Of a stretch of DNA of 64,000 bases, positions 5,740 through 59,072 are shown piece by piece. The position numbers and the translations under genes are program-made. The stretch is from Ruditapes philippinarum (Eukaryota), in NCBI RefSeq assembly GCF_026571515.1, contig NW_026864813.1, forward strand, positions 248,001-312,000. The letters run 5' to 3'. The notes beneath the pieces were generated by a model. It was not told the origin of the DNA, made no database searches, and saw only the letters and a program-made list of their open reading frames with translations. How positions within the stretch are numbered: position 1 is the first letter of the stretch; the number at the start of each line of letters is the position of its first letter.

Positions 5740-8700
5740 CTAGATGTTTACCGTTGATGAAAACACTGGGAACAGTTCTCTGACCCGTCATCTCTGCGAG
5801 GGCATGCTGTAATGCTGTCCCATTACCTAATACAACATAAAACCAAATATCCTGAAGAATTTTTTAAGATTGACTTGCAAATTTTTTTATTTTTTTTAAG
5901 CATCTAATATCATAAATATTGGATATCAAAATCATTCTTAACTTACATATCTGTTAAATGTGTTCTTCCTTCATTAATAAGTGTCAGAAGGCCATTAACT
6001 GTCATGCTTCATATCTTTGATAATTTACATGGACTTGTCCATTTTTCAGTCAGGAGAAAAAACCTTCATCATCATTCTTGAAAATTTCAAATAACCAACT
6101 AAAAAACTAACAGTGCAGACCATGATGACTGATCTTGGTGTGCACTAGTTGCATTGGTAGAATCTCTGTAAGCACCAGCAAACTAAAGGATAAACATCGA
6201 CAAAATATACATTTTCTTTTTTTCTTTATTTAGTTGTACATCGCACAAACACAGTTTAGGTCATATGGCAACTTTAAAGCTTTACTGGTGGAGGAAGACC
6301 TCAGGTGACCTCGGCACAAACCGGCACCTGTGAAGAACCACTAATGTTCCATAAGCAAGCTGGATAGCAAATGTCAATTAATAGAAGCATAATCTCAAAG
6401 TAAATGTTACATAGCTGGCAGTCAAAAGAAACTACTGGATACTGAAAATTTTCAACTTTCATAATACCTTTAAGAGTGATGATATTTATTATAAATACCA
6501 GTATTATAATAAAATTGAATTAAACAAACAAATACATGTAAAGACTTACTTTCAGTGTCCAACTCCATGGCCTTGTAGTCCACCTTAATTGAAGAAAATA
6601 ATTCCTTCACCTGAAAAAGTTATGAAATATCTTATTAAGTTATATCAATTCCATGTCGAGAGTATTGGGCCCTCAGGATAATATACAATTATGACCTTTA
6701 TCATGATCTTAAAGACATTTACCAAGTTATAAGCAAACATATGTAGCGGTTAATGAGTTATAAAGTTGTACAAAAAGTTGCTCACAAAACCACTCTTATC
6801 TTGACACTGACACTGGGTTAGTAGGAATTCAGGCATCTTTGCCCTGAATTACAAGGGCCCAACATAAGGCCCTATTGCCAATTGAAAATCAAATTTCTTT
6901 GTAAAATACCAGTTTACAAACGCTACATGTATCTCTAAAATGGCTGTCCTTGAAATAAATGCCTAATACTGAAAAGTATGAACAATTTATGATAAGTTTT
7001 AATGATTTCAGTAGATGAATTTAAGTTTCGATATGGGAACTACAATGGACTCCAAAAATTTTAAGACATGTACATGGACCTCCTGACTGAAATTCCTAGG
7101 GAAAGCCATGTAATCCCAACAGCAGGAAGCAATCAAACTGCTTAAACTTCTTAGAAAATTGAACTGATTTGACATGTTTCTTGAAATATTTAGTGACAGG
7201 TTATAATAATATACACTTGCCCCAGGGGTAAAAACTAAGAAGTCATGACTGTGTAAGGTAGATCTTTTTTATCTGTTAAATTTTTCCAATATGCAACACA
7301 CTTTTCCCCAATTTTTGCCATGGGCCTTTTCTCTAAATAGCTTTAAAATGACATTGCTAGGATAGCCCTATTTTTCTTCAAAGAGTCAAGTTAATTGTAA
7401 CCTTTTTGTCAAATAGTCAAGCTTAAAATAGTATACATTTCTCCAAACAGTCGAGCTAAAAAAAAGGTTAAAAACAAGAGGGCCAAAATGGCCCTGAGGT
7501 CGCTCACCTGTATATAGGCCCCCGGAGCGGGGCCAGTTTAAACCCCAAGGCTTTTATTTTAACAAACTTGGAAGACACCCGTTAGAAGATGTTTCATGTT
7601 AAGTTTTTACTACACACATATGATGAAAAACAATGATCTTCCCCCCGGCAGGGCCAATTTTAACACAAGGGCTTTATTTTGAACAAACTTGGTAGACACC
7701 CATAAGAAGATGTTTCATGCTAAACATCTAAGCTCTAGCTCATTGGGTTTTTTCAAAGAAGATTTTGTAAGTTTTTACTATACACATTATAGTTAAAAAC
7801 AATGACACCCCTGGGGCGGGACAAGTTTTGACCCCAGGGCTTTTATTTGAACAAACTTTGTAGACACTCACTAGAAGATGTTTCATGCTGAATATCTAAA
7901 CTCTAGCTATTTGGGTTTTTTCAAAGAAGATTTTTAAGTTTTTGCTAATTACACATATAAAGAAAAATCTATGACCCCTGGGGCGGGGCCAATTTTGACC
8001 CCAGGGCTTTTATTTGAACAAATTTTGTAGACACTCACTAGAAGATGTTTCATGCTTAATATCTAAACTCTAGCTATTTGGGTTTTTTCAAAGAAGATTT
8101 TTAAGTTTTTGCTATACACATATAAGGAAAATCAATGACCCCTGGGGCAGGGCCAATTTTGACCCCAGGGCTTTTATTTGAACAAACTTTGTAGACACTC
8201 ACTAGAAGATGTTTCATGCTTAATATCTAAACTCTAGCTATTTGGTTTTTTTCAAAGAAGATTTTTTCAGTTTTTGCTATACACATTTAAGGAAAATCTA
8301 TGACCCCTGGGGCGGGGCCAATTTTGACCCCAGGGCTTTTATTTGAACAAATTTTGTAGACACTCACTAGAAGATGTTTCATGCTTAATATCTAAACTCT
8401 AGCTATTTGGGTTTTTTCAAAGAAGATTTTTAAGTTTTTGCTATACACATATAAGGAAAATCAATGACCCCTGGGGCGGGGCCAATTTTGACCCCGAGGC
8501 TTTTATTTGAACAAACTTTGTAGACACTCACTAGAAGATGTTTCATGCTTAATATCTAAACTCTAGCTATTTGGGTTTCTTCAAAGAAGATTTTTTCAGT
8601 TTTTGCTATATACACATATAAGGAAAATCAATGACCCCCTGGGGCGGGGCCAATTTTGACCCCAGGGCTTTTATTTGAACAAACTTGGTAGACACTCATT

Positions 8701-11700
8701 AGAAGATGTTTCATGCCAAATATCTTAGCTCTAGCTCTTTGGGTTCTTTAAAAGAAGATTTTTAAGTTTTTTCCATATGCATATAGGGAAAATCAATGAC
8801 CCCCTGGGGCGGGGCCAATTTTGACCCCAGGGCTTTTATTTGAACAAACTTGGTAGACACTCACTAGAAGATGTTTCATGCCAAATATCTAAGCTCTGTC
8901 TCTTACGGTTTTTTGAAAGAAGACATTTTTCTTTCGGTTGCCATGGCAACCAGAGTTCTGCATGGAATTAAATTCTTTGAACAATTTTTAAAGGTGACCA
9001 CCAAAGGAACATTCCTGTGAAGTTTGGATGAAATTGGTTTAGTGGTTTATGAGGAGATGTCATTTAAAGTAAAAGTTTACGGACGGACGGACGGCGGACG
9101 GAAGCCGGACGAAAAGCGATCACAAAAGCTCGCCCTGTCACTTTGTGACAGGTGAGCTAATAATTGAATAAACAAGCATATTACACTTTCTGCTATAATT
9201 ATATGAAAATAACAGTTACTTCAGACAAAGAAATATGCAGGAAAACTTCAAAACTGTTTTAAACACTGGTTACAAAAATAGAAACAGTTAAACAACCTTA
9301 GATATCATATCACATCAAGGTAAATTGATACTGCATTTTATCACATATAAGAGGACTTCTGGGAAAACACAAAGCTATGGAAACAAATGTATGGGGAAAA
9401 ATAGATTAACCAGACTGTGTCAACAATGATATTAAGCATATGATTTTAATAAAGTGCAAAATGAAAACATTATTTACTTCAATCAGTTTTATCATAGTTT
9501 TTACTATTGGAACTGTTGGACTAATACTATTGAAAACATGTCAATAGTATTAGTCTTATACATATATATGCACAGTGCGTTAACTGGAGTGCAGTGTTAG
9601 TTACTAGCACTCACTGTATGTCTAGAGCATGCCGGTTGATTGGCTCATTTTTTTTCTGGGGTTTACTTATTGTGACAACAGGAAAAGAGATAACGATAGA
9701 AAAGTCATATTCAGATGCTCTTACATTGGTTACTTTTTCTGGGTTTAAATATTTTGATGTCAGGGAACTGTTTTTATTTTTGCCTTCGATACAATGATTT
9801 CAAAACTCACAAAATAAGATAACTTATCATGTACATGTAGTAAGAAGATTTACTTTTGTCTGATTTATATTTAATTTTCCATATGTGTTGCGCTTGATAA
9901 TAAAATTGAAAAAAATTAAGCAATAATTAAAAGAATACATTTTCATGAACTATTTTCTGGGTGCATATCAACTTTTTGCTCGTTGTTTTCATAAGGATAT
10001 CAATGGTATTCTGATTAATCTGGTGGTAAAGACTTACCTGGATACAGAATGGACAGGTGGTTTTACTGAACACCATCACCTTGTTCTTGCTGGTCAGGTC
10101 ATTGATGACCGCTTTCAGATCTGGTGTTGGTGGCATCTTGCCCACTGTGTAAGAGACGGGTGAGCCTGCCCGCTTAATGGTGGATGTAAATAAATCTGAA
10201 AAACAAAAATCCCATTGTTGTAATTTAAGTTTTATGTATATATTTCATGATTGTACTGTGTTGTATTTATATCATGAGATGTCATTTACTCTTTATGCTA
10301 TAAATCAGGGGAAAAAAACTAAATACTGTTGTAACTTATTTCTTATAGGCCATCAAGTTAAGACAGTTTTCAAATACAAAATGTATATATGTAGTGTAAA
10401 CCCTAAATCAACATTCCTCCCCCTTATCATAAATATATTATTTACTTGCCCTTAAGTGTATCATGGGTATATAAACTTTCCTATTTTAGCAGTTAAATAC
10501 TAAAACGTAAATTCAAATTCTATGTTAATGAAAGAAAGAAGGCCTCAAAATTTAAAGTCTTGTCTTAAGTCCATTTGTTTTTTTTAAATAGGTAATATTT
10601 AGATAATTCCTGCCTATAACACTCTCGAGAGGGGTTGGCAGTACTCATAATTGGATGGATGGACGGACAGAAGTTCTAACAGGACAGTAATTATCAAGGC
10701 TACTCTATTGTTCTCTCTATTGTTCTTTTTCACGCCCGTTTAACTCACAACGAGTGAAAAATGTCCATCGGTAAAAATGTTGTGAGCAACTTCCGTTCCT
10801 CGTTGTGAGCACCCATCTATGACGTGTGACACGATAAACAAGGTAAGTTTTTCATAATTTTTGAAGATTACAGACATTTATGTAAAAATATCGGAATGCA
10901 GTTAGCTAGCGATGTGTTTTCCGAGTATGCACATGTAAAGATATTGCCTGTTGGTGGACAATTTGTTGGAAATACCGTGCGACGCAGTCACTCGGGGTAG
11001 CAGGAAAACTGGAGACAACTTCTCTTTGGACCTAATTTAACATTGAAAACGTTGATTCTGGTGACGTCAGAATCGATGTTTTCAATGTTAAATTAGGTAA
11101 CTGCATTCCGATATTTTTACAAATGTCTGTAATCTTCAAAAATTATGGAAAACTCACCTTGTTTATCGTGTCACACGTCATAGATGGGTGCTCACAACGA
11201 GGAACGGAAGTTGCTCACAACATTTTTACCGATGGACATTTTTCACTCGTTGTGAGTTAAACGGGCGTGTTTTTAGCCACACAAAAGAAAATAGCCACAT
11301 AAAAGCATTACAGAATGAATGACATCAAAGAGAAAGAACAGTAACCTATTGTCCCTCTAGCCACATTATTACTGTCTCGTGAGAGCGGACGGACGTGCCA
11401 CTTAAATGGACTAAGGGGCCATTTCTTTTGTTATTTTCTTTTGTTTAATAGAGGGCCATGGCCCCTTATTCTATTGTTACGGAATGAATTCTATTGTTCC
11501 TCTTTGTTCTGTATACAGTCAGATGGCCCCGTAACTTCTCTTAAATATCCCCCCCCCTCCAAATAAAAAGCAGCAAAAAAACAAAACACAAAATAAAACA
11601 AGAGGGCCATGATGGCCCTGAGGTCGCTCACCTGTATATAGGCCCCCCCCAACCCCCCCCCAAACGTTGCAGGGCCAATTTAACCAAAGGGCTTTTATTT

Positions 11701-14700
11701 GCACAAACTTGGTAGACACCCATAAGAAGATGTTTCATGCTAAACATCTAAGCTCTAGCTCATTGGGCTATTTAAAAGAAGATTTTTTTAAAGTTTTTAC
11801 TATACACATATAGTTAAAAACAATGACACCCCTGGGGCCGGGCTAGTTATGACCCCAGGGTTTTTATTTGAACAAACTTTGTAGACACTTACTAGAATAT
11901 GTTTCATGCTTAATATCTAAACTCTAGCTATTTGGGTTTTTTCAAAGAAGATTTTAAGTTTTTGCTATACACATATAAGGAAAATCAATGACCCCGGGGC
12001 AGGGCCAATTTTGACCCCATGTCTTTTATTTGAACAAACTTTGTAGACACTCACTAAAAGATGTTTCATGCTTAATATCTTAACTCTAGCTATTTGGGTT
12101 TTTTTTTCAAAAAAGATTTTTTAAGTTTTGCTATACACATATAAGGAAAATCAATGAACCCCGGGGCGGGGCCAATTTTGACCCCAGGGCTTTTATTTGA
12201 ACAAACTTGGTAGACACCTATTAGAACATGTTTGATGCTAAATATCTTAACCATAGCTCTTTGAGTTCTTTAAAAGAAGATTTTTTAAGTTTTTACTATA
12301 TGCAATTATAATAGGAAAATCAATGACCCCACGGGGCGGGGTCAATTTTGATCCCAGGGCTTTTATTTGAACAAACTTGGTAGACACTTATTAGAACATG
12401 TTTCATGCTAAATATCTTAGCTCTAACTCTTTTGGTTCTTTAAAAGAAGATTTTTTAAGTTTTTACTATATGCATATAGGGAAAATCAATGACCCCCTGG
12501 GGCGGGGCCAATTTTGACCCCAGGGCTTTTCTTTGAACAAACTTGGTAGACACCTATTAGAACATGTTTGATGCTCAATATCTTAGCCATAGCTCTTTGA
12601 GTTCTTTAAAAGAAGATTTTTAAGTTTTTACTATATGCATATAGGGAAAATCAATGACCCCCCGGGGCGGGGCCAATTTTGACCCCAGGGCTTTTATTTG
12701 AACAAACTTGGTAGACACTCACTAGAAGATGTTTCATGCCAAATATCTAAGCTCTAGCTCTTATGGTTTTTTAAAAGAAGATATTTAAAGTTTTTTCTTT
12801 CGGTTGCCATGGCAACCAGAGTTCTGCATGGAATTAAATTCTTTGAACAATTTTTAAAGGTGACCACCAAAGGAAAATTCCTGTGAAGTTTGGATGAAAT
12901 TGGCCTTGTGGTTTATGAGGAGATGTCATTTAAAGTAAAAGTTTACGGACGACGGACGGACGACGGACGGACGCCGGACGAAAAGCGATCACAAAAGCTC
13001 ACCCTGTCACTTTGTGACAGGTGAGCTAAAAAGAAAAAAAACAAACAATAAAGCATGTACCTGAAATCACTCTATTTTAAAGAGGGGCATTAGTTGAGAC
13101 AATACCTTAATAGTCTTGATATCTTGCTTTGTAATCCAAATTAATAATACACTTGACATCTTAATCAAACTAACCTATTGAATTATTTATTTATAAATGT
13201 CCTTAATTCAATAACTAAAGTTTAATTAAAGTAGTAGATAAAAATTCTTAAATTTTACTATTCAAGAGGCAGGTATAAATTTATTTCAGTGTTTTTGATT
13301 TTTACTTGTAATTTTGACTTATTGTATAGAATTCTTTAGAGCTTAATTAAAGAAGTTTAACTTACAAATATACATTCAACAGGGAACATAAATGAAACTT
13401 ATTAAAATAAATAATTTAAACCTAATTACCTGAATAAGTTCTAGTTCCTTTTTTAATTACAGTAATTAAACAATTTAAAACTCAATTGTAACTTCCTTAC
13501 AAGCAGCAGTGGAAGTGATCACTGAGTAATTTAGATCTTACATGTACATTGTCTAAACCAATGACACGGCAATTATTACATGCCACACATTTAACAGGAT
13601 CTCAGTTAAGCTGTATTGACACTAGTCTATTTTTAGCTACCATTAATGCAGTGAAAAAGGTATTACACCTCTAAATGTAGAACATGTTCCATATTTATGA
13701 TAAAATTTATAATCAAACCTACTTGCCCCCATAAGGCCAAAATTTGTTTGTTTCTTGTTTCCAGTTCATAGATAAGTTTCTATCATCACAACATACACAA
13801 ATGACAATCAAACCTACTTGCCCCCATAAGGCCAAAATTTGTTTGTTTCTTGTTTCCAGTTAAGTTTCTATCATCACAAAGTACACAATGAACACATAAA
13901 AATTAGAGTACTTTTTATCATATGAAGAGCTGGAAAAAACCCAAGCACAGATACTTTGACTTTAAAGTCATTAAATATATACAACATATGGTCAGAAGGA
14001 AAGAAATAACATGCAGAGGGCATTTATAAACATTAAACAGCATAATTTGATGCACAGAAAATGTATTCACAGATATCTTATATACATGTAATAATCAATA
14101 TAAATGTATTGATGTATCCAGAATATTTGTCATCCCATATTGAATCCTCAATATTTGCCATCCATTATTGATGTCTTCTATTTGTCATCCAATATTGATG
14201 AATTCTCAATATTTTTCAGCTTTACTGGTGCCGGAAAACCTCAGGTGCCACTTTCTGCATTATTTCAGGTACAAACGGGTAGAACCACCAAAGTTCTGTT
14301 AGCAAGATGGATACTTTCCTCAGAAAGAATCTATGACAAGGTGCAGCTTGAACATACAGCGGTGAAAGGTAGCGGGTTTGAAGTAAATTTTACTCACTTT
14401 TACAAGTTTCTAAAATATACAATATACTGTTTGGTGTCCGCTAAACAAAACTAGAAAGATCTCTCCAGCGCCTTTAATTTTGGGAAAGTAAAGTGACAGT
14501 ACTTACTGAACAGAAACAAAGCGGCATAAGAGGTCAATATCATTCAAAATGCGTTATCATAACACAAATGCATCTTTGATAAAACACCTTCACTGTTTAA
14601 TAAGAGGTTTGGTTAAACATATTCATTTAAGCCTGATTGCGAAACTTTTTGCAAGTTATATTTTATCACTTTCGAGGTCAGCTTCCTGGAATCAACCAGT

Positions 14701-17700
14701 ACTGGTGTCATATGAAGAGATATGGTTGTGCCCCGACTAGGGCTCAAACTCATGATCCCTGGGTTGAGAGGCAGACACCTTAACCACTAGGCCACCGTTC
14801 CCCTTCCCAGGTAAGGATCTAGCATGTTCAAGACCCCTAATCCATCTTCTGGATCTGCGCATAAATAAGAACAAACTTTCAAAATTTTAAACATTACCTC
14901 TAAATCAACAATTGAATAACAATTATTTTGCCAATCAATCTATCCATGCCAACATACATTTAAGCCCATCAATGTCATCATCATTTAATCCTCAAAAGTG
15001 TAATAAATAGCATAACATAAAAGTGAATTTTAAGTGATAGTACAACAACTCATTTCAGTTTATGTTATAAATACCATCCCAGACTAGTATAAAATTTTTC
15101 ATTTGATAAACTTTAGCATTCTTTAAGATGTCCCACATAGCTAGGGTAGAATTTGGTTATTATGTACATAATGAATAGGTCATACATGTACAAGTCAGAT
15201 TTCAGTACAAATTTCTACAAAATATCAAAGAATATCTATACTTTTCAATTGTAGACCAACAAAATATATATAAATCATATTTTGGATTTTCAAATTTTCA
15301 ATGTAACATTAAATGGGAGTGAATGTGATCTTTGATCTTGCAGCTGCTTGGTCTTCAAATTTCAAGTGATTCTACTATGTCATTCAAAATTTTGTGTCAA
15401 ACTGACATTATCAGTGTATATGTATGTGCCACTACTTGACACAAATTTGTCATGTATCAACTTCTTTGAGAACAATTTAAGGACCAAGACTGTTGAAATA
15501 GTAATGTTGACCTTGATATTTAACCTCATTACAGAGCACTTGTGAGTATAAGCTTATACAAATCTTGACATATTATGCAAAGGGCAACACAAAACTGTAA
15601 TATAAAAGTTAATATTTAGGTCACCATGACCTTGACCTTTGTCTGAATGACATAAAATTCTAAAGGAGTCATTAACTTGTTGTAAAAAACGTCTACACTA
15701 AGGGTTCTCTAGTAGTAGTTACTGGTCGGACAGCTTTTATCCCACACAATGCCACAGAAACCTTGACCTTTGAAAAACTGACCCCAAAATTAATACTGGT
15801 TGGACTGTGCACCTCTATTAGTCATGGCCAAACTCAACACTGAGTCTTCAGACTGTAGGCAAAAATGTTCTACATTTGGTCAGACAAGCTTTTTGTAGAA
15901 AACACACCAAACTTGGAACTTGACCTTTGACCCCAAAATCAAAAGGTGTCATCTACTAGTGATAACCAAACTTAACATAAAATCTCAAGACTAGTCCAAT
16001 TCATACCCTAGTTATTTGTCAGGCAAGGTGAGGCCTACGGACAGACTGACACTGAGCAAAGCAATATACCCCATTTCTTCAATAGACTTATTTCTTCTGA
16101 AGTTATTGATGAAGATTTTATACAAAGTGTCACCATGACGATAACCTTATGACGTAAATATCAGCAGGGAAGGACATTGTCCCTAACCAAGATTTATTCC
16201 TTTTGTTATAAATCTGATATAAATCAGAAAAGGATTATACATCAAATGTAACTATGACCTTGACCTTTGACCAAGCACCATACCATTATATGATCAGAGT
16301 TACCTTCTGATGCATCATGAAATGTTGCTAAAACTTCCTTACTTTCTTACTTTCTGTAGTTCTTGAAATTTAAGAACAAGATCATTCTGTTTTTTACTTA
16401 TTTTCGTCTAAAGTGCAAATTATTATATTTATCAATTATTGTAACATTGCTTATAGTAAGCATACTTATTGGTCTAATGTTGGCATCCACTTGACTGTCA
16501 ATTGATCCACATACATGTGAACTCTCCCACTTTTAGCGGGAGACTCCCACTTTCTGCAGCCGTATTTCAAAGATTTTTCTTAAAAAAAGGGGTATTTTCA
16601 CAAATTAAAGAAATCTCCCTACTTTTGATGTCAGAACTTCCTTCTTTGTTTATTGCAAATTCTAAAAACTCCCCTCTTTTTGAAGAAAAATCTCCCACTT
16701 GATCATCAAAAAAGTTCACATGTATGGATCCATAAACAAATTGTGTTTTAAATCTTGTTATTTCCGAAAACTACATTGATAAATTTTAACAACTTCATGT
16801 CAAGACAATATAAAGAATCAGGGTCAGTTCTGACCTAAACCTTACTTGGCCCACTAGTTAACTCAAACATAGCCTTTTACCAACAAAAAGTTACATGTAT
16901 CCTTTTACACTGATCAACAAGACATAATGATGGCCTGTGCACCAAAGTGAATGAGAAGACAAGGAAACCCTAACCTCCAGTGCCTTGTCTTCTCTAAGAG
17001 AAAAAGAAACTATCAATATGACAAGTTCAGATATACATATACCTTATTTCTTAGATGCAGAGAATATGAAGGAGTCTGATTTTAAAATTTAACAAGATAT
17101 GTTTGTAAAACATGTATGCCCCCTATCAGCAGCCAATTATTCATGTGATAAGGTAATTATGCATGACTTCTGACCCAGTGATCAAACAATTAATAAGGGT
17201 TATCAAGTATCTACTGGTCATGACCTTGACCTTTGACCCCTTGACCCAAAACTCAATAGGGGTCATCTGCTGGTCAAGACAAATCATCATACAAAGTTTG
17301 AAGTTCCTAGGCCTAAGCGTTTTTACTTAATTGATCAGAAACCGTTTTTACTTACAAGGTCAATGTGACCTTGACCTTTGACCCCTTGACCCCAAAATCA
17401 ATAGGGGTCATTTGCTGGTCATGACTAATCACCATGCCAAGTTTTGAAGTTCCTAGGCCTAAGGGTTCTTTTATTATTGATCCGAAACCGTTTTAACATA
17501 CAAGGTCAATGTGACCTTGACCTTTGACCCCAAAATCAATAGGGGTCATCTGCTGATCATGACCAATCACTATGCCAAGTTTGAAGTTCCTAGGCCGAAG
17601 TGTTCTTTAGTTATTGATCAGAAACCGTTTTTACTTACAAGGTCAATGTGACCTTGACCTTTGACCCCTTGATCCCAAAATCGAAAGGGGTAATCTGCTG

Positions 17701-19807
17701 GTCATGAAAAATCACCATACCAAGTTTGAAGTTCCTAGGCCTAAGCGTTCTTAAGTTATTGATCAGAAACCGTTTTTACTTACAAGGTTGATGTGACCTT
17801 GACCTTTGACCCCTTGACCCAAAACTCAATAGGGGTCATCTGCTGGTCACCAACAATCATCATACAAAGTTTGAAGTTCCTAGGCCTAAGCGTTTTTTAG
17901 TTAATTGATCGAAAACCGTTTTTACCTACAAGGTCAATGTTACATGACCTTTGACCCCTTGACCCTAAAAACAATAGGTCATCTGCTGGTCATGACCAAT
18001 CACCATACCAAGTTTGAAGTTCCTAGGCCTAAGGGTTCTTAAGTTATTGATCGGAAAGCATTTTTACCTACAAGGTCAATGTGACCTTTCCCTTTGACCC
18101 CTTAACCCCAAAATCAGTAGGGGTCATCTGCTGGTCATGACCAATCACCATACCAAGTTTGAAGTTCCTAGGCCTAAGGGTTCTTTAGTTATTGATCGGA
18201 AACTGCTTTTACCTAAGAGGTCAATGTGACATTGACCTTTGACCCCTTGACCCCAAAATCAATAGGGGTCATCTACTGATCATGACCAATCACCATACCA
18301 AGTTTGAAGTTCCTAGGCCTAAGGGTTCTTTAGTTATTGATCCGAAACTGTTTTTACCTAAGAGGTCAATGTGACCTTGACCTTTGACCCCTTGACCCCA
18401 AAATCAATAGGGGTCATCTACTGATCATGACCAATCACCATATCAAGTTTGTAGTCCCTAGGCCTAAGGGTTCTTTCGTTATTGATCGGAAACCGTTTTT
18501 ACCTACAAGGTCAATGTGACCTTGACCTTTGACCCCTTAACTCCAAAATCAATAGGGGTCATCTACTGATCATGACCAATCACCATATCAAGTTTGAAGT
18601 CCCTAGGCCTAAGGGTTCTTTCCTTATTGATCGGAAACCGTTTTTACCTACAAGGTCAATGTGACCTTGACCTTTGACCACTTAACCCCAAAATCAATAG
18701 GGGTCATCTGCTGGTCATAACCAATCACCATACCAAGTTTGAAGTTCCTAGGCCTAAGGGTTCTATTGTTATTGATCGGAAACCGTTTTTACCAAAGAGG
18801 TCAATGTGACCTTGACCTTTGACCCCTTGACCCCAAAATCGTTAGGGGTCATCTACTGATCATGACCAATCACCATACCAAGTTTGAAGTTCCAAGGCCT
18901 TAAGGTTCTTTACTTATTGATCGGAAACCGTTTTTGCTTACAAGGTCAATGTGACCTTGACCTTTGACCCCTTGACCCCAAAATCAATAGGGGTCATCTA
19001 CTGATCATGACAAATCACCATACCAAGTTTGAAGTTCCTAGGCCTTAAGGTTCTTTAGTTATTGATCGGAAACCGTTTTTGCTTACAAGGTCAATGTGAC
19101 CTTGACCTTTGACCCCTTGACCCCAAAATCAATAGGGGTCATCTACTTGTCATGACCAATCACCATACCAAGTTTGAAGTTCCTAGGCCTAAGGGTTCTT
19201 TAGTTATCACTCGGAAACCATTTGGTCTACGGACGGACCGACGGACCGACGGACCGACAAGTGCAAAGCAATATACCCCCTTTTTTTCAAAAATCAGAAA
19301 ATTTGGCAAAATGTGAGGACTTCCCATTTGCTTCATCTATATGTTAAATAAAAATACCATTTAAAATGCCTACTTTGTCATTAGATAACATTTCATTCAT
19401 ATGTATTACTGACTACTTAAACTATGTCCCAGTTATTGACATTATTATATAATACTGTATCTATTCTAGTCAGCCTGTGACAAATCCTATTAAAAAATTA
19501 AACACACAATTACTTACATTTGCTAACAGTTAAAGAAATTGTAACTTTCAGATATTAACCGAAAATACGACTTCTTCATATAAACTTAACAAACTTTAAC
19601 AAAACGCACTTTAAGAACGATTATTTATCTTCTATCCGAAACGCGGGACAAATTACGCACTGTTACACTAACCAGCTAACACGTGAACTGGGTGACAATT
19701 GGCAAAATAAAACTTTACCGATTACCTGTTAACTTTCCTTTATTTCTGTTAAACTGAAATGTTGTATTTCCAACTTTAAACACAAATTTCTTTATAAAAT
19801 TATTCAT
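5740..19807 (-). CDS. TXNRD3: 5' exons of a glutaredoxin-domain protein, most likely thioredoxin-glutathione reductase (TGR/TXNRD3-like); 3' part outside the window
   Basis: Exons 19807-19726 (candidate leader MNNFIKKFVFKVGNTTFQFNRNKGKLT), 10195-10038 (..MPPTPDLKAVINDLTSKNKVMVFSKTTCPFCIQ), 6610-6550 (VKELFSSIKVDYKAMELDTE), 5826-5740 ([30 protein letters not shown]). All junctions are GT-AG with matching phases 1,0,1. CPFC dithiol and TVP motifs define a Grx domain; the MPP start resembles fish and flatworm TGRs. A stand-alone Grx2 cannot be excluded because the reductase exons are not visible. Confidence 0.8.
6225..6365 (-). mobile_element. 3' part of SINE, same family as 62218-62445
   Basis: Reverse complement cacctgaggtcttcctccaccagtaaagc...gccatatgacctaaactgtgtt matches the 62.35-62.42 kb copy. 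Confidence 0.7.
7473..9160 (+). mobile_element. Non-autonomous Helentron/HINE-like element with internal ~165-bp tandem array (copy 1)
   Basis: 5' aacaagagggcc...ggccct plus subterminal gctcacctg; about 9 units each with ggggcggggccaattttgaccccaggg; (GGAC)n microsatellite; 3' hairpin agctcgccctgtcactttgtgacaggtgagct containing the inverted subTIR caggtgagc. This layout matches described bivalve pearl/HINE elements. Confidence 0.85.
10731..11269. mobile_element. MITE with ~170-bp near-perfect TIRs, CAC...GTG ends, possible TTTTT TSD (CMC/Transib-like)
   Basis: cacgcccgtttaactcacaacgagtgaaaaatg... at 10731 is the reverse complement of ...catttttcactcgttgtgagttaaacgggcgtg ending 11269; five T on each flank. 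Confidence 0.88.
11597..13030 (+). mobile_element. Non-autonomous Helentron/HINE-like element with ~165-bp tandem array (copy 2)
   Basis: Same termini, microsatellite and 3' hairpin as 7473-9160; about 7 units. Confidence 0.85.
13710..13890. repeat. Local ~97-bp tandem duplication
   Basis: aatcaaacctacttgcccccataaggccaaaatttgtttgtttcttgtttccagtt occurs at ~13711 and ~13807. Confidence 0.85.
14218..14385 (-). mobile_element. Degenerate SINE, same family as 62218-62445
   Basis: agctttactggtgccggaaaacctcaggtgcc...aggtacaaacggg matches the 6.3-kb and 62.3-kb copies. Confidence 0.6.
14625..14802 (-). mobile_element. tRNA-derived SINE
   Basis: Minus strand GGAACGGTGGCCTAGTGGTTAAGGTGTCTGCCTCTCAACCCAGGGATCATGAGTTTGAGCCC has a Pol III A box and a degenerate B box, followed by a non-tRNA body shared with 3.5 kb. 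Confidence 0.75.
15590..16082 (+). mobile_element. Old degenerate copy of the TGACCTTGACC-array HINE-like family
   Basis: Three decayed units with (tga)ccttgacctttg, then acggacagactgac and gcaaagcaatatacccc, as at 19230-19285. Confidence 0.7.
17091..19292 (+). mobile_element. Non-autonomous Helentron/HINE-like element with ~14 x ~145-bp tandem array
   Basis: 5' aacaagatatg...tatgccccc; units caaggtcaatgtgaccttgacctttgaccccttgaccccaaaatcaataggggtcatc...; (GGACCGAC)n microsatellite; end aaagcaatataccccc with the 3' hairpin apparently truncated. Confidence 0.85.
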
Positions 19808-20228
19808 GAAGTTTCAGTTTTTGACATTTTCAGCCGGTGTGTACTTAACACTTGATTTATATCAAGATATTTTTAGATTACAACTTTAATCGAGTAAATA
19901 TTGTACAAGGAAAAATGAATGAATGAAAAACAAAACAACGCTATTGCCCAAGGCCATTTCTAAAAGACTAGCAAACCCCTTTAAATTGGGGATGTTAACT
20001 AATTGGCGATGTACTGGTTTTTCATCTACATCTACATTATACTGCAGGGTTTTCTGTTGGTTACAGATTAAAATTTCATTCAAATGTCTGGATACTGTAT
20101 AAAAATAGGTTGTAACCTAAACTGTTGTGATTAAAAAAAAGAAGAAATTTATCGTATATCCGTAATAATTTCATAATTATTTAGTCGCTATCATACCAGG
20201 CTACTGTACGAATGCCAGGCAAACTCTT

Positions 20229-21270
20229 TTGCGTTTACTTGAGGATGGAACATACGATACGTATAGTACATCCCAGCTTGAGGACTGGAAGATGGCGTTC
20301 TTGAAAGACAGAAATGAGCATTTTGCAGCAACCCTAATGGGTCCGTCCAAGGCTTTTGACCGTCTACCGCATGATCTCACAGTCCACAACCTAGGGGCAT
20401 ATGGGGTGCCTGAAAATGTATGTGGTCCAGTTTCAAATTATCTATTTAACAGTAAACAAAAAGTTAAAATAGGAGAATCCATTCTTGGGCCCTTGATCTT
20501 CAACATCTTCATGACTGATATCTTTTACTTTATAGACTTTTTAACTCATTTGTTTTATATAAAGTAAACAATGTAAATTAGTTATAATGAGGTGATATTT
20601 CAGTAAATATTGATCTATAAGTCCACCCTTTACAGTTATGCATATATGACAATACTCTAGCCTTCTCCAACTCAAACTTAGACCTAATGAAATAAAACTT
20701 GGAAAATGAAAGCAAACTAGATTAATATTAACTGGTTCAACATGAATAAAATGCAACCTAACCCGCTCATGTTTCAACAATGTCAAATTAATAATGTAAT
20801 AATAAATTGTAAATATTGTGTGTAAAACTGCTTGGGGTAGACATATACTTTTTTTACTTAACTTTTATAAACAGATCACCAGAATGTGTATCAATTAAAT
20901 GTGCTTTTAAGAATAAACGGTTTAATTTGAATTCAGAATGTTTACTTCTTGTTTATAAATCTTTTATTAGATATAACTTTAACTGTTGTCCATTGAAAAA
21001 AGTAAATATGCTTACTCTACATTTTTAAATCTAGAATCAAAACGTGTTCAAATACAGTCACGAAAAATCACCACCATAATTATATAAGATCGTTAATGAT
21101 TTCCTAGTAGTTCAATTAAAAAAAATCCAATTACTCTTTTAGGTATCAAAGAAATGTAGATATACCGATGGTCAAAACAGTATCATACGGTAAGAATTCT
21201 TTTAGGTTTGAGAAACAGTATCCCATATTACACCGAAAGGTTGAAAATAACAAAGGTTTTAAAGAGACTT
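20229..21270 (+). mobile_element. Decayed LINE (CR1/L2-like) reverse-transcriptase fragment
   Basis: Motifs (L)SKAFDRLPHDL...LGAYG, ILGPLIFNIFMTD and VKLLGVDI...LVYKSFI are broken by deletions and stops. Confidence 0.8.
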
Positions 21271-22330: not shown

Positions 22331-22493
22331 TCATTTATTTTCATAATATAAATTGTTATTCTAATAAATTAGCAAAAAACACGCACACGTGTACGTTATC
22401 GGTCCAGACTTCATCAAATGGTGTATAAATCTCAAACAAATAAATTCTGATCCCTCCATGGCATTAAACCACAGTGGAGTGTCTTTGTTATAT

Positions 22494-22730
22494 GAGCCGC
22501 GCCATGACAAAACCAACATAATGGGTTTGCGACCAGCATGGATCCAGACCAGCCTGCGCATCCGCGCAGTCTGATCAGGATCAATGCTGTTCGCTTACAA
22601 ACCCTATAACAAGTAGAAAAAGTAGATAAGCGAACAACATGGATCCTGATCAGACTGCGCGGATGCGCAGGCTGGTCTGGATCCATGCTGGTCGCAAACC
22701 CATTATGCTGGTTCTGTCGTGACGCGGCTC
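22494..22730. mobile_element. Palindromic MITE, ~100-bp TIRs, GAG...CTC ends, ATAT TSD (Sola-like)
   Basis: atat-gagccgcgccatgacaaaaccaacataatgggtttgcgaccagc... and ...gctggtcgcaaacccattatgctggttctgtcgtgacgcggctc-atat. Confidence 0.88.
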
Positions 22731-23699
22731 ATATTTTGTTATTCTTGGCTTTAAATAAGTTGTGCTCATTCTATGCATTTAAAAAGTCTTTCCATGTAGC
22801 TATTTTGTAAGAATTAAATTGCAAAGCGCGGAAATTAAATATTCTAAAGCGAGTGACATGTACATATCGACTTTAAAGATAATAATTGCGGAACTAGATG
22901 TAGTAGATTTATTTAGTTTTAATTTAATAATTTTTGCTAGGGTATTAGTTTTGTTTATTAGTATTGTTGCCACAAGGCAATATATTAAGCTGAAAATATC
23001 GAACACAATTTTTGGAGAGCAGTTCAAGTTACTTAGGGATTAAATGCCAATACACCGATATGGTCAACAGGTCAGAGGTGCGAATTAATATAATTTTAGT
23101 GCTATACTTCTCAGAAAAAATACAAAAAGCCAATCTAATTTTACGAATATAATTTCTCCTTTCTACTAAAAAACGTATTAACATTGTATGACGTCAAGAC
23201 CATGTGGCAAATTCGCCCAGGAATTAAAATTCATCTCGTCTCATCCTTAACTCGCATCACGAAATATAGGAAATAAATTTCTTAATACCCTAGCTAGCTA
23301 TATATATACATGATATTGAAACAAAAATCTAAATGAAAATTAGCCCCATGAAAGCTTCGTTGTCTCTCCGAGTACAAGTATTACATATATTGCTCTTTTG
23401 CTGTCAGAAGCACTGTTTACTTATTTATTAACATACAAATTGCATAATTTGTACATTCATTATGTTGATTATACTTTTATATATTTGTCTTATTAGAGAT
23501 ATGGTGATATTTATCCCCGGTTCAGTTACTACAGATTCGACAAACACCCATGGCAATATCATACTATCCGAAACCTTTTTGAAGAATTCACTTTCATTTT
23601 TTACGGTCCCCTTTCTTTTTTTAATAAGTATAACGAACAAACTTGGAAATGATTTTCGTAGCACACAAGGCGACATTATGCTTTTCGATTCTTTCAAAA

Positions 23700-26600
23700 A
23701 TGCACACATTCATTCATTTTTTATGTTTAATGGTTTCGCCATTTTTACCAGGTAAGTGATATTATTATCATTATTATTATTGTTATTATTATCCTGAGGA
23801 AAACTTTATGAATATATTTTATTAATTTTATGAAAAATAGACACACGTAAAGATGCACCGAAGGCAATTAAAACGAATCAGTCACTTCCCACTAAAGTGT
23901 TTACTTGGATATATGTACGACGTATATATCGACGTTTTATATATATTTTAGCATACCTTATGCATTGGAAATAACTTAGGAAATAATCTCTCCCACCATG
24001 TCATCATGGAACATGAATGGAGCCTATTCAGAAATGAATAAATTTTTACTCCTACATAGAAAGGGCCTCAAAAGGAAGAGGGCGGGGGGGGGGGGGGGCA
24101 AAAAGCCGTCAAAACACATCTATCTATATGAGGTGAAAGGTTAAATGAAACAAACTTTTGATGGCATCTGTTTATAATGTAGTGTTTTCAGATTATCATG
24201 GTCCTCATAAATATAATGAGTAATTTATCGTACATGCTTTTTATCTTTTGAGCACTACACTGTGAGCTGCATGTATAAGAACTTATCGAAATGTCTGACC
24301 ATACTCAATATTTTTAGACCCACAATTCAAATACATGTAAAAATGAACATCCCCATGCTGCCATTGGCCATAACTTAGGATAAGTTTGTAATGTACATTG
24401 CATAGAGTAAGAATTTAATGATCTATTCTTTTTTTTTTCAGTTCAGATCAGTTGCTCCTCCTCGACAGGTGGATATTGGAAGGAATGTAACGGCGTGTTT
24501 TATTATTTTAGTGCTAAGAAATATAACTGGGATGACTCTTTGCAATTTTGCGGTCATTTAGCAGACGACACTCATGTAGCTGACCTTGGCAAACAGCCGG
24601 TAGATTTAGCAAAAAGTTGTAGCTTTGATTTAAAAGACAATAGGCAATACTGGATAGGTAAGATTTAAGGATCAAAGATTAAAGATCTGTTGAAAAGTCC
24701 AAGTATTTATTTTTAAATTTTTAAAACATTACATGCATAGAAAAAGTTTATATTTTTTCGATTTTATTCCATTTCTTTGAATTGTTATTATGTAAGTAAC
24801 CTTTAGTTATCTATATTGGTTTTAGATATAAAATGATCGAACGTTATTCTTATCTAGACATTCAAAAAGTGTAGACGTCGATCTAAAATTGATACTGTCA
24901 TCCTTTTTTCCGTTAGAATGCTGGTACGGGCAGGCACAGAGCGATTGTACAACATTAAAAAAGCAAAGGCAAAAATTAGAACGCCGTCTAACATCATGCA
25001 ATACCATCGCATATCCTATATGCGGAACAAGAAAAAGGCCTATCAAAGCACTGCCAACAGACAAAAAATCAACACCCGCACTAACATCGAAGAAACCTAC
25101 GCGCGCACAAATAACAAAAGGCTTAAAAACCACATCAACAACGCATGTTCAGGCAACAACATCTCGAAACACGGTGCAAGCAACAACAAAGGTAACACAT
25201 GTACCAACAACAAGAACGTTAACGCGTGCGCCATCAACAAGAAAATCTACACGGACACATACAACAAAACCGACCACACAGGCACCGATAACAAGAACGA
25301 AAAAGCATCTGCAAACAACAATAAACTTAACACAATTGTTTTCAATAAGAACAAAGAAGCAAACGAATACTCCAAAACCAAAAATGTCAAAGCATGTAGC
25401 AGCCAGTAAAAAGTCAATGTTTCCGCCTACAACAAAATTGTCAAAGAACGCGCCAACAGCAAAAACGTTAAGCAATGCGGCAACATTTAGAAATTCAAAA
25501 CATAAGCAAACAATGAATAAGTCAAAGTCTATGTCAGTAGCTCGAAATATAACGCATGCAACCAAAACGGTAGCGATCGTACCAATAACAAGACAGTCAT
25601 TGCACACACAGACAACAAAAACGCCAACAAAGGAACACACAGAAATAAAAACAACAGAGACACAAACAGCAAAACATACAACAGAGGCACAGACAGCAAA
25701 ACATACTTCATACTATCAGCAAGCCACGTGGAAGACAAAAAGGACAACAACGACAGTGCCGCCAACAACAGGAACAGGCATGGACAAGATTTAAATAATA
25801 AATATAATAATAAAGTTTAAAAAATGCGTTTTATATCTTTCATCTTTGCTCGTGAATTTACATTTACAAACTCTGTCGGGCTGTTTAAAATAGGTCACAT
25901 TTAAGACTTTAAAACCTGTCAGATATAAATGCGCTAGATAACAATATATATTCATATATAGATACTCTACTTTATCGAATTTACTCATTTTTTTTCAGAT
26001 TATTCTTGGGTTCGAATCAATACAAGTGAATATTTTGTCAACCATATATTGTACAATTACACTTTTGCCAGAGAGTATTGCATACGGACAAAGAATGCAT
26101 TTCTTATGACGTCACTAAGTCCTGTTCGCTACATTCAAATTCTGTCTCGACTTAATCTACGCGACGGGAAATACTGGATCAAAGGTTTGTGAGAATACTG
26201 ATTAAGGGGAGTAACCGTTGCAAGGAGTTTGTTATGAGGTTGTAAATTTTTACGCTATTGTAAAAAATAATAACGGGAGCAATGACATTAATTTCAATGA
26301 AAAAATGTTTTAATGACGTAAACCATTTAGAAAAATGCTAGAATATGTAAACAAATATCTGCAAGGGATTTGCGGCTATGATCGGAATATCTGTCCCTCG
26401 TTACCGCCAAAGTTGCGGGTACCCTCTAGACGGATAGTCCGATCCGAACTGCAAAATATGACAGATCTTCTTATTCTCGTTTAGCTCTTTTATCAATCTT
26501 ATTAAAATCAGCTCTAAATAAGGTTCCGCATTTAGATCTGACCGCGACCAAATACGAAATCATTTCTGGTGACATTGTACACAGCCAATCATCGGCGAGC

Positions 26601-28072
26601 TTTCATAATTTCTAATTTTAACCTCGGGAAAACCAATGCTGAGTAGGTGATTTTTATGATTTCTAGAACAAACATGGCAAGTTGGCAAAAACAGTTTTGC
26701 CTAAATTATCTCTATTTTTACAAGTTTATTTGTTAAGAATTACTTTAAATAATTTTATTAACAAAAATCAACAAGTTGTTTGACGTTCACGGATAATTGT
26801 ATTTTGATAGTTCTTCTAATGTCTATGTTAAAATCAATTTGATTGCATGGCTAATCGAGAAATCCGAATTATAAGTTATGGAGGCGAAACATATACGGTT
26901 GTCATCAGATCTACATAAAGAAATAAGTAGACATGAACTTTATTCAGATTTGTCTTTAAATGTGGTTTGACCAACATCTGCATTAATATTTTAAAAGAAC
27001 TATAATTACATCGAAAACATTACACATATTTTTCAGTGCTTTGCAAGTACATGACATATGTGTATATTTTTTCCATCCTTTTGCTGACCGGCTTGATCTT
27101 GATCTAATGAATATTTAATTTTCTGAAAAAAAGAGAAAGAACAATAACAGCATAAATAGAGCAACAAAAAGCAACAACAAAAAAACAACAACAACAACAA
27201 CAGCAACATGAACAATAACATGAAACAAAAAAAAAACCAAAAAACAAAACAAAAAACACAACAAAACGTTAATGCGCACTGCTGTTTCTATCAGGATACA
27301 ATATGTTTTTGCCAAATAACATTGTTTGGTTTGATGTTTGATATCTGGAAAAAAATTCCATATTCTGCTTCCCTTTCTTGATCTTGTTGATATTTACTGT
27401 GATTTTGTATCGTATGTTACTGTAAAGTAAGCAAAATGAAGAAATTTAAAAACTAATGATTACAATTCAAGCTATATTTTCGAGAAAGTGAAACAAATAC
27501 GTATATTTTCAAGTCATTTTATGCTTATTTTGAAAACACGGATAATATTACTGAACGATATAACCTGTATCAAGAGAATAAATATAAGTGATGTATCAGT
27601 TGTGATAAAATGAATAGTTATAATTTCAGCTCATGACAATGCTCTTTCTGCCCAAGGATGCCTCACATACGACAGCCTGAAACGGTCATTATCCCAAAGC
27701 AATTGTTCACGAGCGTTATATAGCGTATGCAGTAGGTCAGTGTTTGGTAACAACGACACCGATATACTAGAGAACGCTGTCTTTAAACAAATGTTAAAAG
27801 ATATGACCCTGGATAGAACGAACACAGCCGTTAGTAGACGACATCGGATGAGCATAAATAACGATCACCGTTGGTCTGTGAGAGCTACTGGGGTTATTGG
27901 CCTGCTAATTATTGGTGTTGTTATGGGTTTAATGGTACTGAGTGACTTGACAAAGCTAAGTGGTTGTCAGTGTTACAGGTTGTGTAAATGTTGTAAAAGA
28001 ATATCTCGTACGTCGAAAGATAAAAATTTAAAAATGTTGAACAAAAACCCGCAAACTTCAAGCCAATGCTGA
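23700..28072 (+). CDS. Gene A: type-I membrane protein, SP - C-type-lectin-like domain - Thr/Lys-rich mucin stalk - CTL-like domain - basic juxtamembrane motif - TM - Cys-rich tail (~585 aa)
   Basis: Exons 23700-23751 (MHTFIHFLCLMVSPFLP), 24442-24657 (WKECNGVFYYFSAKKYNWDDSLQFC...YWI), 24917-25777 (C..C..SCNTIAYPIC plus mucin), 25999-26184 (YNYTFAREYC...YWIK), 27630-28072 (CLTYDS..NCSRALYSVC; TM GVIGLLIIGVVMGLMVLSD). All introns phase 1; intron 3 needs a GC donor. Confidence 0.8.
27150..27270. repeat. (AAC)n / A-rich low-complexity tract in intron of gene A
   Basis: aacaacaacaacaacaacagcaac...aaaacaaaac. Confidence 0.75.
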
Positions 28073-29816
28073 AAATATGCAAACAGTATTTCTTAAAGAT
28101 TGTAGCATTAGAATATGAAGGTCATATTGACCGTCTGCATCGAAATCACCACAATATTTTTAAGACAAGATAAAAGTAATTTTGTTATGAAACAGACTAT
28201 TCTTCGCGGGTTCACATTTGTTGCGAGTACTTGTTTGTTCGATTTTATTCTTCCGCAATTACTGGAATGTCAGCTGTTCTCTCAGTTACTTGTACTAATT
28301 TGATACTTATTGTTTTCATCGCTCTGATCTGAATGAAATTCAATTCTGTAATTTATTAAGTTATTTCATAATTATGTGGAATAATTCATTACAAATATTT
28401 ATATTTAGTTTCATAATATTTTATTGTATACTTTGTACATGAAAAAATTTACACAATCTAACATCATACTACAATTTACATACAGAAGAGTTGGACCAAA
28501 ACTTATGGGAGCTTCCTTATGGGAGAATTCACAGAATAGTTTTGACAATTTTGTTTTTCCATTTTCTTAGTTTCTTTTCCCACATTAAACGTTCGACGCA
28601 CAAAACTGCAATCAAAAATACGAACAATAAATATCCTCTCCATTAACATGCACTGATCTTAAAAGCAATGCCACATTGCGACGAATACAGATCCTCAATC
28701 ATGAAGTTGGTTATAAAATAACAACCTCGTCACCAAGAAGATATTGCCTCTCAACTCGCATTATTTGGTGTTACTGCTACCACTTTTTTTACTAACTAAC
28801 CCTTCGTACTTGTCACTGTCGAATAACTCTTTTTATTGTGATGGAAATATGTTCTCCATTCATTGCATGGATAGTGTAAATATTATAGTCAGGTTTCATC
28901 ATTTCGGACACCCACTGCCCATATTTACCATTTTGTCACTGGCATTGGAATATGTCTTAGTTTGTGTCATAGGAAAATTCATATTGTCATCAATGATAAA
29001 ACGAGTGCAACGGCGAGTGTTTTGAAAAACGTTGACTTTATTATGACGTTGCATTAAATTGACATTCAGCGTGCGCCGGCGTATGATAGGTGGGTGTTTT
29101 AATTCTTCATTTACATGTATTTCTTGTTATTTGTTTTCTACGAAAACACACATATTTGATGAAGAAGAAGTAGAACTCTAACAGAGATGCATTATAAAAA
29201 ATATTTCCATGATTGGTAAAACATAATCATTGTCATTGCCAAAGTAATGTAGACTTTTTAAACATAGGCTCTAGAATAGCAATCTCGTCATCACCAGTCG
29301 TTAAGGCACATTATGCCTCAGGTTGACTTTATATCTCAGTTACTTTTGATATCCTATCATAGTTTCCAACAAGTTGCCATAGATTCACTTACGTATTTGC
29401 CAGTTAAACGAACCATACTTTGATCTGTTGTTCTTCGGCACATAACACAGTTATAGTTTTTCAGTATTTGTATGAAAGACAAAGTTGTTATATGACAAAA
29501 AATGTCGCATTAAGCACCACTTCTTTCAGATATTAAGCATCTAAGATGCTCTAAAAAAGAGAAAAACAGAACCCTTAAAGAACGCATAGAACGACGAAAC
29601 TGTAAGCTACCTACCATGCAATCATTATTAAAAATCATAGCAGATAAGGAAAATTGATTCATTTCTTTGTACACATCATTTGATTCCATATGTATATCAT
29701 CCTAATATTTATATAAATGGATATTTTAATGCATTCGATGTACGAAACACATTTTATACACTCTTTACAATTAATCAAAACTTTGACCCCAATGCTGCTA
29801 GATGTGAATGTTTTAC

Positions 29817-30200
29817 AAGCCTCGCCTTGACAAAACCAACATAATGCATTTCCGATCAGCAGAGATCCAGTTCAGCCTTCGCATCCGGTATCAGTTTCTC
29901 TACTTGTTATAGGGTTTGTAAGCGACAAAACCAACATAATGCGTTTGCGATCAGCAGAGATCCAGATCAGCCTGCGCATCCGGTATCAGTTTCTCTACTT
30001 GTTATATGGTTTGTAAGCGACAAAACCAACATAATGCGTTTGCGACCAGCCTGATCAGGATCCATGCTGTTCGCTTACAAATCCTATACCACGTAGAGAA
30101 ACTGATAGCGAACAGCATGAATCCTGATCAGACTGCGCAGGCTGATCTGGATCCGTGCTGATCGCAAACGCATTATGTTGGTTTTGTCATGGCGCAGCTC
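29817..30200. mobile_element. Second copy of the Sola-like MITE with internal ~95-bp triplication of the left arm
   Basis: gacaaaaccaacataatgc at ~29829, ~29924 and ~30019; right TIR ends gcagctc-atat, followed by (AC)n(AT)n. Confidence 0.8.
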
Positions 30201-37098: not shown

Positions 37099-37136
<38 letters not shown>

Positions 37137-58175: not shown

Positions 58176-59072
58176 TTGTTTGTTAAGTTCACATTTCATA
58201 TCACATAGCTAGAGTGATATTATGCTCCCGCTTTCGCCGTCAAATTGAGTTGAGTCAATAATATTTTTCAAGAGATTGATTATTATAATGGTGATTGACC
58301 AATAGTTGATTATAAGAAATGTTTTGGATAACATTATAGCTATATATATTATAAAACGACTGTTCCACTAATTGAATATTCCGAAGATATCTACAGCAAT
58401 GTATGTGGGCTAATATGATAATTGGTTATTTTTGCATAGTAAAATATAAACTTGTTAATTTGATTTTTACCTGTTTACTCAACATTAACACTTTGATGGG
58501 CTTACTGTCACTTACTATGAATGTAAAAGAGAAAGAAATTTTTATTAAAGATATTTAATTCCAATTCTACAGCAATGTCCGTGGGTTACGTGGATTATTG
58601 AGAATTTTTGCATAGTAAAATATAACATTAAATAAAATATAACTTCATGATTGAATTGCAAACCTGACAAATATGCTGGCGACGCTTTGAATAGCCCAAA
58701 CACTTTTAGCTGATTATAACTTGCAAGTTCAAGTAACATTTTTACAAAAGTCATCATATATCGGATATTGAAAGACGGAAATGAATTATGTCTTACTTTG
58801 TTACAAGGCTGAATGAAAAATCCCGTAAAGCGGAAATAATCTATTTTTAATTTGTTTGCAACAGTTACTCATATTCATTTCAGTTTTTACTTTTCATTCT
58901 GAAACAAAAACACAGAAAAAGAGCATATAAAATGATATCAAATATCTTAATAGATCAATAAAATTGTTGAACATGGTACATGTATCTCTATCATCTGAAT
59001 ACAAGTGTTATAAACATGTGAAACAATATTTACAAAATAGAGTACATGCATTTTTTCTGATTTTTTGAGGTT

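Follow-up and report, generated by a model that had tools for sequence, protein, structure and literature searches.

A nuclear receptor half-site cluster in the tandem core of a clam HINE element: a candidate protein-docking site in an intron of a probable TGR gene

Introduction

Non-autonomous Helentrons of the HINE type are already well known in bivalves, and the element described here adds a new HINE copy. In the available text of PMC7492417, such an element is defined by a 5' module (a subterminal inverted repeat or subTIR, an inverted repeat or IR, and a GTCY microsatellite), by central repeats, and by a 3' module made of a subTIR and a palindrome. The Cg_HINE elements of Crassostrea gigas combine these end modules with central tandem repeats of 140-180 bp, a T-rich site and a location in or near genes; the clusters CL6 and CL12 have monomers of 147 and 138 bp, and boxes of low variability are common to the clusters (PMC7492417). 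The clam element is like them, in a comparison made by description. It differs in its host, in the loss of its 5' subTIR and in its long array of 13.9 units, whereas the oyster arrays mostly hold fewer than five units, the longest reaching 29 (PMC7492417).

The clam element also resembles the Pearl elements (CvA, CvE, CvG), DTC84 of Donax trunculus and MgE, which are built of a flank, core repeats, an ACGG microsatellite and another flank, with AA ends (PMC3879986). Each Pearl-type core repeat contains a conserved segment that was supposed to bind a protein, with experimental evidence described as missing and no candidate named in the available text (PMC3879986). In DTC84, the conserved palindrome reads TTGTCCGGACAA, which is no RGGTCA cluster (PMC3879986). 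The word "receptor" does not occur in the accessible part of PMC3879986, and that of PMC7492417 contains no receptor-site reading of the Cg_HINE boxes. The motif is present in a PCR primer in the accessible text of PMC10743806, and the part of a meeting-abstract volume that is available draws no link between a receptor and the ITR (PMC2990333). We found no nuclear receptor reading of a HINE core box in the literature searched, the coverage of which leaves out most subscription journals.

Reading the conserved segment as a half-site cluster names candidate proteins for it, and the question becomes testable by one gel shift. If true, a major class of bivalve repeats would be tied to nuclear receptor biology, with a bearing on the targets of the ligand-independent mollusc oestrogen receptor (ER). 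In Drosophila, the DINE-1/ISX Helitron has spread MSL sites, for which both binding and function were shown. The clam element is similarly a non-autonomous rolling-circle element that disperses a motif resembling a transcription factor site, and its case consists of a motif match and of conservation. Judging from sequence, we regard as evenly balanced the case that it is a passenger transposon whose conserved core box may be a protein-docking site that serves the element, not the gene.

Results and Discussion

The window, that is, the whole 64-kb stretch of clam DNA that was analyzed, contains a non-autonomous Helentron (HINE, Pearl/DTC84 type) at 17091..19292 on the minus strand, recognized by its module order and by the intact ends of its relatives. 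From 19292 to 17091 on the minus strand, the modules are the inner IR (19271..19280), a GTCC/GTCG microsatellite (19232..19258) of the class found in Cg_HINE and DTC84 as far as the available texts describe them, the core tandem array (17221..19223, no strand assigned, period 145 bp, 13.9 copies), the 3' subTIR (17114..17123), which is complementary to the GGGGGCATAA end of other copies, the 3' terminal palindrome (17099..17113; 6-bp stem, 3-nt loop) and the CTTGTT end, which runs into A/T-rich DNA. The hairpin fold of the terminal palindrome has an energy of -2.8 kcal/mol (z -0.82), and 6 related loci have an equivalent module at their left ends. The opposite end is truncated: the 5' subTIR expected after 19292 is missing in this copy. 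It is seen in other copies of the family, as 12 contigs of run X7 read from behind 19292 into GGGGGCATAA, and in related loci, where a CATAA terminus was counted by eye at 32 of 38 right ends (two duplicates among them). With a 3' subTIR and palindrome, a GTCY microsatellite, central tandem repeats and a dispersed, high copy number, the array is indeed Helentron-borne, as a preliminary description of this DNA had proposed. No open reading frame of 70 or more amino acids was found in 17091-19292, nor any Rfam match in 14000-21000, and the window copy can presumably no longer move.

Ten perfect palindromes of inverted half-sites spaced by three nucleotides (IR3), AGGTCA-ATG-TGACCT, lie in the array (17357..19102, no strand assigned; pattern search and unit alignment). 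All ten exact AGGTCAATGTGACCT matches reported in the preliminary description were found where it had placed them, at 17357, 17503, 17640, 18073, 18363, 18508, 18653, 18798, 18943 and 19088. Outside the array, AGGTCACCATGACCT at 15618 is the eleventh IR3 match in the window. Over the whole window, the AGGTCAnnnTGACCT pattern occurs 11 times where shuffles average 0.01; this test is blind to kinship: the 13 full units are 84-97% identical in pairwise comparison, and the ten palindromes, being copies of one 145-bp unit, therefore count as one origin. The IR3 is perfect in 10 of the 13 full units and broken at 17785, 17931 and 18218, while the leading partial unit has GGTCA-TGACC without the spacer. 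The consensus unit holds six RGGTCA half-sites, arranged as IR3, DR0, DR1 and DR2 plus one more, and the half-site density is 73 in the 2.2 kb of the element versus 34 in the 57.8 kb outside four repeat stretches.

We take GGTCAnnnTGACC to be the consensus oestrogen response element (ERE), TnAAGGTCA to be the ERR/NR5A site, and DR1 to be a further receptor consensus motif; the element contains ten, eleven and thirteen exact matches to them, respectively, and GGTCA-n3-TGACC, the sequence criterion of an ERE, is found 10 times in the array. Compared with known receptor sites, the clam sites are sequence matches inside a repeat of very high copy number, with a spacer that is nearly always nTG. 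The proposal that the units carry the core of ERR/NR5A sites holds for the bottom strand, on which all eleven TnAAGGTCA occur; on the top strand it holds in part, AGAGGTCA replacing CAAGGTCA in 3 of the 13 units. The unit also contains AAAATCAATAGG and GTTATTGA, inverted relative to each other and conserved in the sister family described below; both are, we presume, similar to the Onecut/HNF6 site.

Older decayed relics of the same superfamily lie at 15500..16280 on the minus strand, identified by local unit matches of 71-84% and by an end match at 16037-16079. The preliminary description had an older copy keeping the palindrome with another spacer. One IR3 is indeed there, at 15618-15632, but only in 1 of about 6 recognisable cores, as counted by eye.

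Reads of runs X21, X1 and X7 were aligned to 19030-20200 at 85% likeness. In X21, the unit was covered to a depth of about 87,000 and most of its unique flank to 0-2.7; the figures were 1.3 million in X1 (flank 0-11) and 5.5 million in X7 (flank 10-33). As contig depths do not translate into copy numbers, they were read for their order of magnitude only: the unit is covered 10^4-10^5 times more deeply than its unique flank in the three runs, which bears out the proposed genome-wide dispersal and points to a family of some 10^4-10^5 similar units. In endocrine-disruption work, ERE scans of bivalve promoters will be swamped by the HINE repeat. X21 is labelled RNA-Seq, yet its loose ends and joints coincide with GATC sites, it contains GATC-GATC junctions and joints between opposite strands, and it looks like a proximity-ligation DNA library; because of these junctions and joints it was treated as DNA-like and not as evidence of expression. 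In X21, 119,701 of 12,895,792 reads fell on 19030-20200, and in the RNA run X23, 4,122 of 7,369,024 reads fell on the repeat, in both directions.

Such abundance would also suit a role at the level of the host, in which the repeat would provide receptor enhancers genome-wide, or a sink for the constitutive mollusc ER and ERR, and be kept by host selection. Besides copy number, this explanation could draw on the palindrome's sequence, which contains no CpG and thus cannot be blocked by CpG methylation, and on a small deficit of rare arm variants among the matches listed. That deficit is marginal among the same matches, however, and the left arm is absent in many host members of the family: 8,230 X21 reads diverge before 19095, ending AAGGCCCC, and a further 4,134 diverge before 19097. 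Moreover, the IR3 is mostly lost in the older relics, and motif matches in closed chromatin are mostly unbound. Mollusc ERs do bind EREs and are constitutive, according to the available text of PMC2529310, and we nevertheless hold maintenance by host selection to be distinctly unlikely.

Conservation of the half-sites was assessed in related repeats. A retrieval pattern that leaves out the IR3 and is adjacent to its arms returned at least 124 metagenome loci, mostly from two data sets, and 120 of the loci listed match the window unit at 66-89%. Among the matches listed, 353 units were cut, of which 327 reached an identity of 60% or more with the window unit; GGTCA-n3-TGACC occurs in 174 of these 327, with the spacer CTG in 153, and the full AGGTCA..TGACCT in only 12. 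The sister family was then taken as the 221 listed units, from 65 loci, lying within 80% of the main consensus, 106 units of other subfamilies being dropped. Its consensus is identical to that of the window at 110 of 145 positions (76%) among the matches listed, and keeps the GGTCA-n3-TGACC core as well as the direct half-sites. The half-site columns that the query had not fixed are identical at 16 of 16 positions versus 70 of 105 for the others (listed matches; Fisher p 0.006); this and the following p-values are optimistic, since the units have a common ancestry and two data sets supplied most of them.

Within the 221 listed units, variation amounts to 2-3% in the arms, 3.7% in the spacer and a mean of 8% (median 4.5%) in the rest. 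The arms differ from the rest (p 0.007, also in the 117 query-unmatched units), the spacer does not (p 0.33-0.40), and spacer and arms are not separable among these listed units. The half-sites of the sister family thus do not change at the general rate of the unit; change at that rate is what the preliminary description had named as counting against receptor function. Of the comparison of half-sites with spacer and flank that it proposed, the slower change of the half-sites relative to the rest of the unit was borne out in the sister family, but the spacer is likewise conserved. Its first position varies between families (A, C or T) with TG kept among the matches listed, and in the window it is invariant. 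Rare variants in the arms of the listed units show a marginal, threshold-dependent deficit, with observed versus expected counts of 28/38 (p 0.054), 39/55 (p 0.037) and 62/82 (p 0.19), and no arm column has variants above 5%, versus 21 of 80 other columns (p 0.046). The non-receptor boxes GTTATTGA.CGGAAAC and AAGTTTGAAG are also kept between families in the listed matches, about as well as the half-sites. Overall, change across families is slower in the half-site box than in the remainder of the unit, an observation of moderate strength.

Part of this conservation could arise with no protein reading the box at all. Slippage of TGACCT would then generate the direct repeats, the IR3 would be a single-strand hairpin or a recombination hotspot that serves unit turnover, a role proposed for the DTC84 palindrome, and the likeness to receptor sites would be incidental. 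We consider this a possible explanation, though a doubtful one. DR0/DR1 can indeed arise by slippage of a 6-7-mer, which counts against docking; the IR3 folds as an 8-bp stem in both strands, in minimum-energy and centroid folds alike; the spacer is conserved together with the arms; and the arm deficit in the listed matches is weak and depends on the threshold, as reported above. Also, the available text of PMC3879986 reports another conserved palindrome for DTC84 and places a microsatellite-like motif at the low-variability segment of CvA. Nevertheless, the entire unit has little folding advantage over its shuffles (z -1.6 to -1.8), and DR0/DR1, the most widely shared part, cannot form a hairpin. 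In the sister family, among the matches listed, the stem is shortened to 5 bp without compensation; the change at the first half-site position, from A to G, is compatible with RGGTCA but weakens the hairpin. Finally, an inverted spacing of 3 recurs with three different spacers in the listed matches, possibly from one origin, whereas spacings of 1, 2, 4 and 5 hardly occur in any set.

More distant families were reached with the 18-mer TGACCTTGACCTTTGACC (DR0+DR1), which matched at least 136 stretches in prokaryote assemblies. Judged by eye, 61 of the listed loci are AT-rich repeat contigs, probably eukaryotic in origin. A scrambled control 18-mer gave 117 stretches in prokaryote genomes, the 80 listed being all single, unlike the multi-match AT-rich contigs. 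The PIVJ/PIVK/PIVM, CBDDTI and FXLX records (a subset of L001-L135) are AT-rich tandem-repeat contigs bearing DR0/DR1 within prokaryote metagenome-assembled genomes (MAGs), where such contigs look like eukaryotic contamination; one 14-kb contig in these MAGs is a tandem array of about 896 bp. Among the matches listed, the 54 PIV loci contain 51 IR3 cores, 49 with the spacer TTG. In the 112 distinct contexts from distant families among the matches listed, the IR3 never stands upstream of DR0/DR1 (0/112), another direct half-site does so in 22, and GGTCA-nnn-TGA stands downstream in 31. The spread of DR0/DR1 is partly built in, because the query fixed it. A pattern for the element ends in prokaryote genomes gave 120 stretches that are apparently due to chance and were discarded, a spacer-length scan of genome contigs gave 2 bacterial matches and was uninformative, and viral contigs scanned with a relaxed triple half-site pattern gave 122 stretches, of which the 12 inspected were simple or coding repeats.

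The direct block is thus common to all families seen among the matches listed and the IR3 is present in some, so that promiscuous readers of RGGTCA would fit better than ER alone. An ER-specific reading was not supported. In the window, conservation is no lower in the spacer than in the arms (0/39 versus 6/156 mismatches to the unit consensus in the 13 full units, with 117/1,690 elsewhere), the IR3 is missing from all 112 listed distant contexts, and thousands of host reads lack the left arm.

The element in the window is a 5'-truncated member of a very high-copy HINE family of bivalves; its 145-bp core unit has been amplified in tandem, which explains why one ancestral TGACC(T) box (IR3-DR0-DR1-DR2) appears 13-14 times. 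For the docking-site reading, we hypothesize a constraint on the lineage of the element, in which source copies retaining the box would propagate better. Most plausibly, host nuclear receptors that recognize an RGGTCA half-site would dock on the box in its double-stranded form, the candidate readers being ERR/NR5A, COUP-TF/TR2-4 and HNF4/RXR, with ER where the IR3 is present. Docking might hold the element in an open or paired state, ready for amplification of the unit and for rolling-circle copying by the Helentron. The copy in the window would then be an immobile passenger of TGR intron 1, affecting the gene slightly at most.

The gene itself, which probably encodes a thioredoxin-glutathione reductase (TGR), lies on the minus strand, and its exons at 19807-19726, 10195-10038, 6610-6550 and 5826-5740 splice in frame. 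Exon 1 (coding part, 19726..19807) encodes a basic N-terminal extension, probably for mitochondrial targeting, and is in frame with exon 2; it matches the N-termini of two Grx-TrxR proteins, P0001 and P0002, at 54-56% over 26-27 amino acids (E 0.002-0.005). Exon 2 (10038..10195) has the MPP start and the CPFC motif, and, like exons 3 (6550..6610) and 4 (5740..5826), was placed by splice frame and homology. A search with exon 2 (proteins of at least 92 amino acids, 19 candidates) gave 5 matches out of 5 to Grx-TrxR fusions, 68-79% identical, one of them named Dreissena polymorpha thioredoxin reductase 1-like; from these matches, the host of the element is probably a heteroconch bivalve. No exons of the TrxR domain were found within the 64-kb window. 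Run X23 had 0 reads at 19310-20200, with 6% of the run read, which is silent either way on exon 1; its assignment therefore comes from homology. A candidate exon with a donor at 19518 was rejected as coding, with no in-frame ATG and no homology support, and may be an untranslated exon.

Since P0001 and P0002 align with all four exons, exon 1 included, the array is placed in intron 1, in agreement with the predicted position in the first intron of the Grx/TGR gene. Its proposed distance of about 250-450 bp to candidate first exons stands for the exon 1 donor, 434 bp from the end of the element; the nearer donor is the rejected one. Intron 1 measures 9,530 bp, of which 4,333 bp (about 45%) are HINE DNA of three families, namely the copy described here, the older relic and a family with a 165-bp core at 11597..13029 (minus strand; tandem repeat and similarity), another copy of which lies in intron 2 at 7473..9160 (minus strand, same evidence). 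The location is unremarkable, because the family is extremely abundant and some 45% of the intron is HINE-derived. Intron 1 also contains a foldback or MITE-like element (10731-11269) with 159-nt arms that are 96% complementary, and upstream of exon 1 lies a decayed reverse transcriptase fragment (20169-20567, plus strand; RVT_1 E 0.0006, below the curated cut-off).

The 434 bp to the exon 1 donor, the ten intact IR3 sites and the loss of the end needed for mobility might suggest that the insertion was exapted as an enhancer or silencer of TGR. We find this highly improbable: three HINE families fill the same intron, mutations have hit the arms of the array and spared the spacer, and the junction differs in another individual. 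In the latter, a 707-nt contig of X7 follows the flank from 19301 and then continues into 160 letters that are off the element (window 19293-19301, record 14); both an empty site and a deletion in the window haplotype that removed the tip of the element fit this difference.

A parallel outside Helentrons came from three densovirus-like records (L138-L143), in which the 18-mer TGACCTTGACCTTTGACC stands in both terminal repeats, just inside the hairpin (about nt 150-265). These records measure 5.9-6.0 kb, end in hairpins, contain GAC repeats and have a capsid ORF that includes a parvoviral PLA2 domain. Six more TGACC follow in the 85 nt after the 18-mer, giving a nine-site cluster with no IR3. 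The exact viral match alone proves nothing and is within chance, because the scrambled 18-mer gave more viral matches (24, versus 8 for the real one). The clustering of TGACC exceeds that of the controls (0-3 extra copies at 24 control loci). Densoviruses and Helentrons both replicate their DNA via HUH endonucleases. We treat the parallel as a lead only, from one lineage. A broader proposal would have the conserved box of Pearl/HINE elements as a receptor docking platform for rolling-circle copying, the cluster of the insect densovirus-like genomes as convergent or shared, and genome-wide ER/ERR/COUP sites that buffer or redirect mollusc ER; taken together, this is speculative and rather unlikely. 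As a by-product of such a platform, ER/ERR/COUP sites would number in the tens of thousands in bivalve genomes.

Elsewhere in the window, a 27-bp minisatellite occupies 1-1283 (47.7 copies), and a second palindromic MITE-like family is present at 22490-22734 and 29829-30188, one copy having a 95-bp internal tandem. Similar-looking genes at 24400-28100, 33500-37800, 44500-47100 and 59000-62900 combine Cys-rich lectin-like exons, Thr/Ser-rich stalks and a C-terminal hydrophobic stretch; two of their ORFs, searched against Pfam, gave no match. Ionotropic-receptor-like exons lie at 51292-53247 on the minus strand, with a Lig_chan match (E 8e-9) for 51292-52170.
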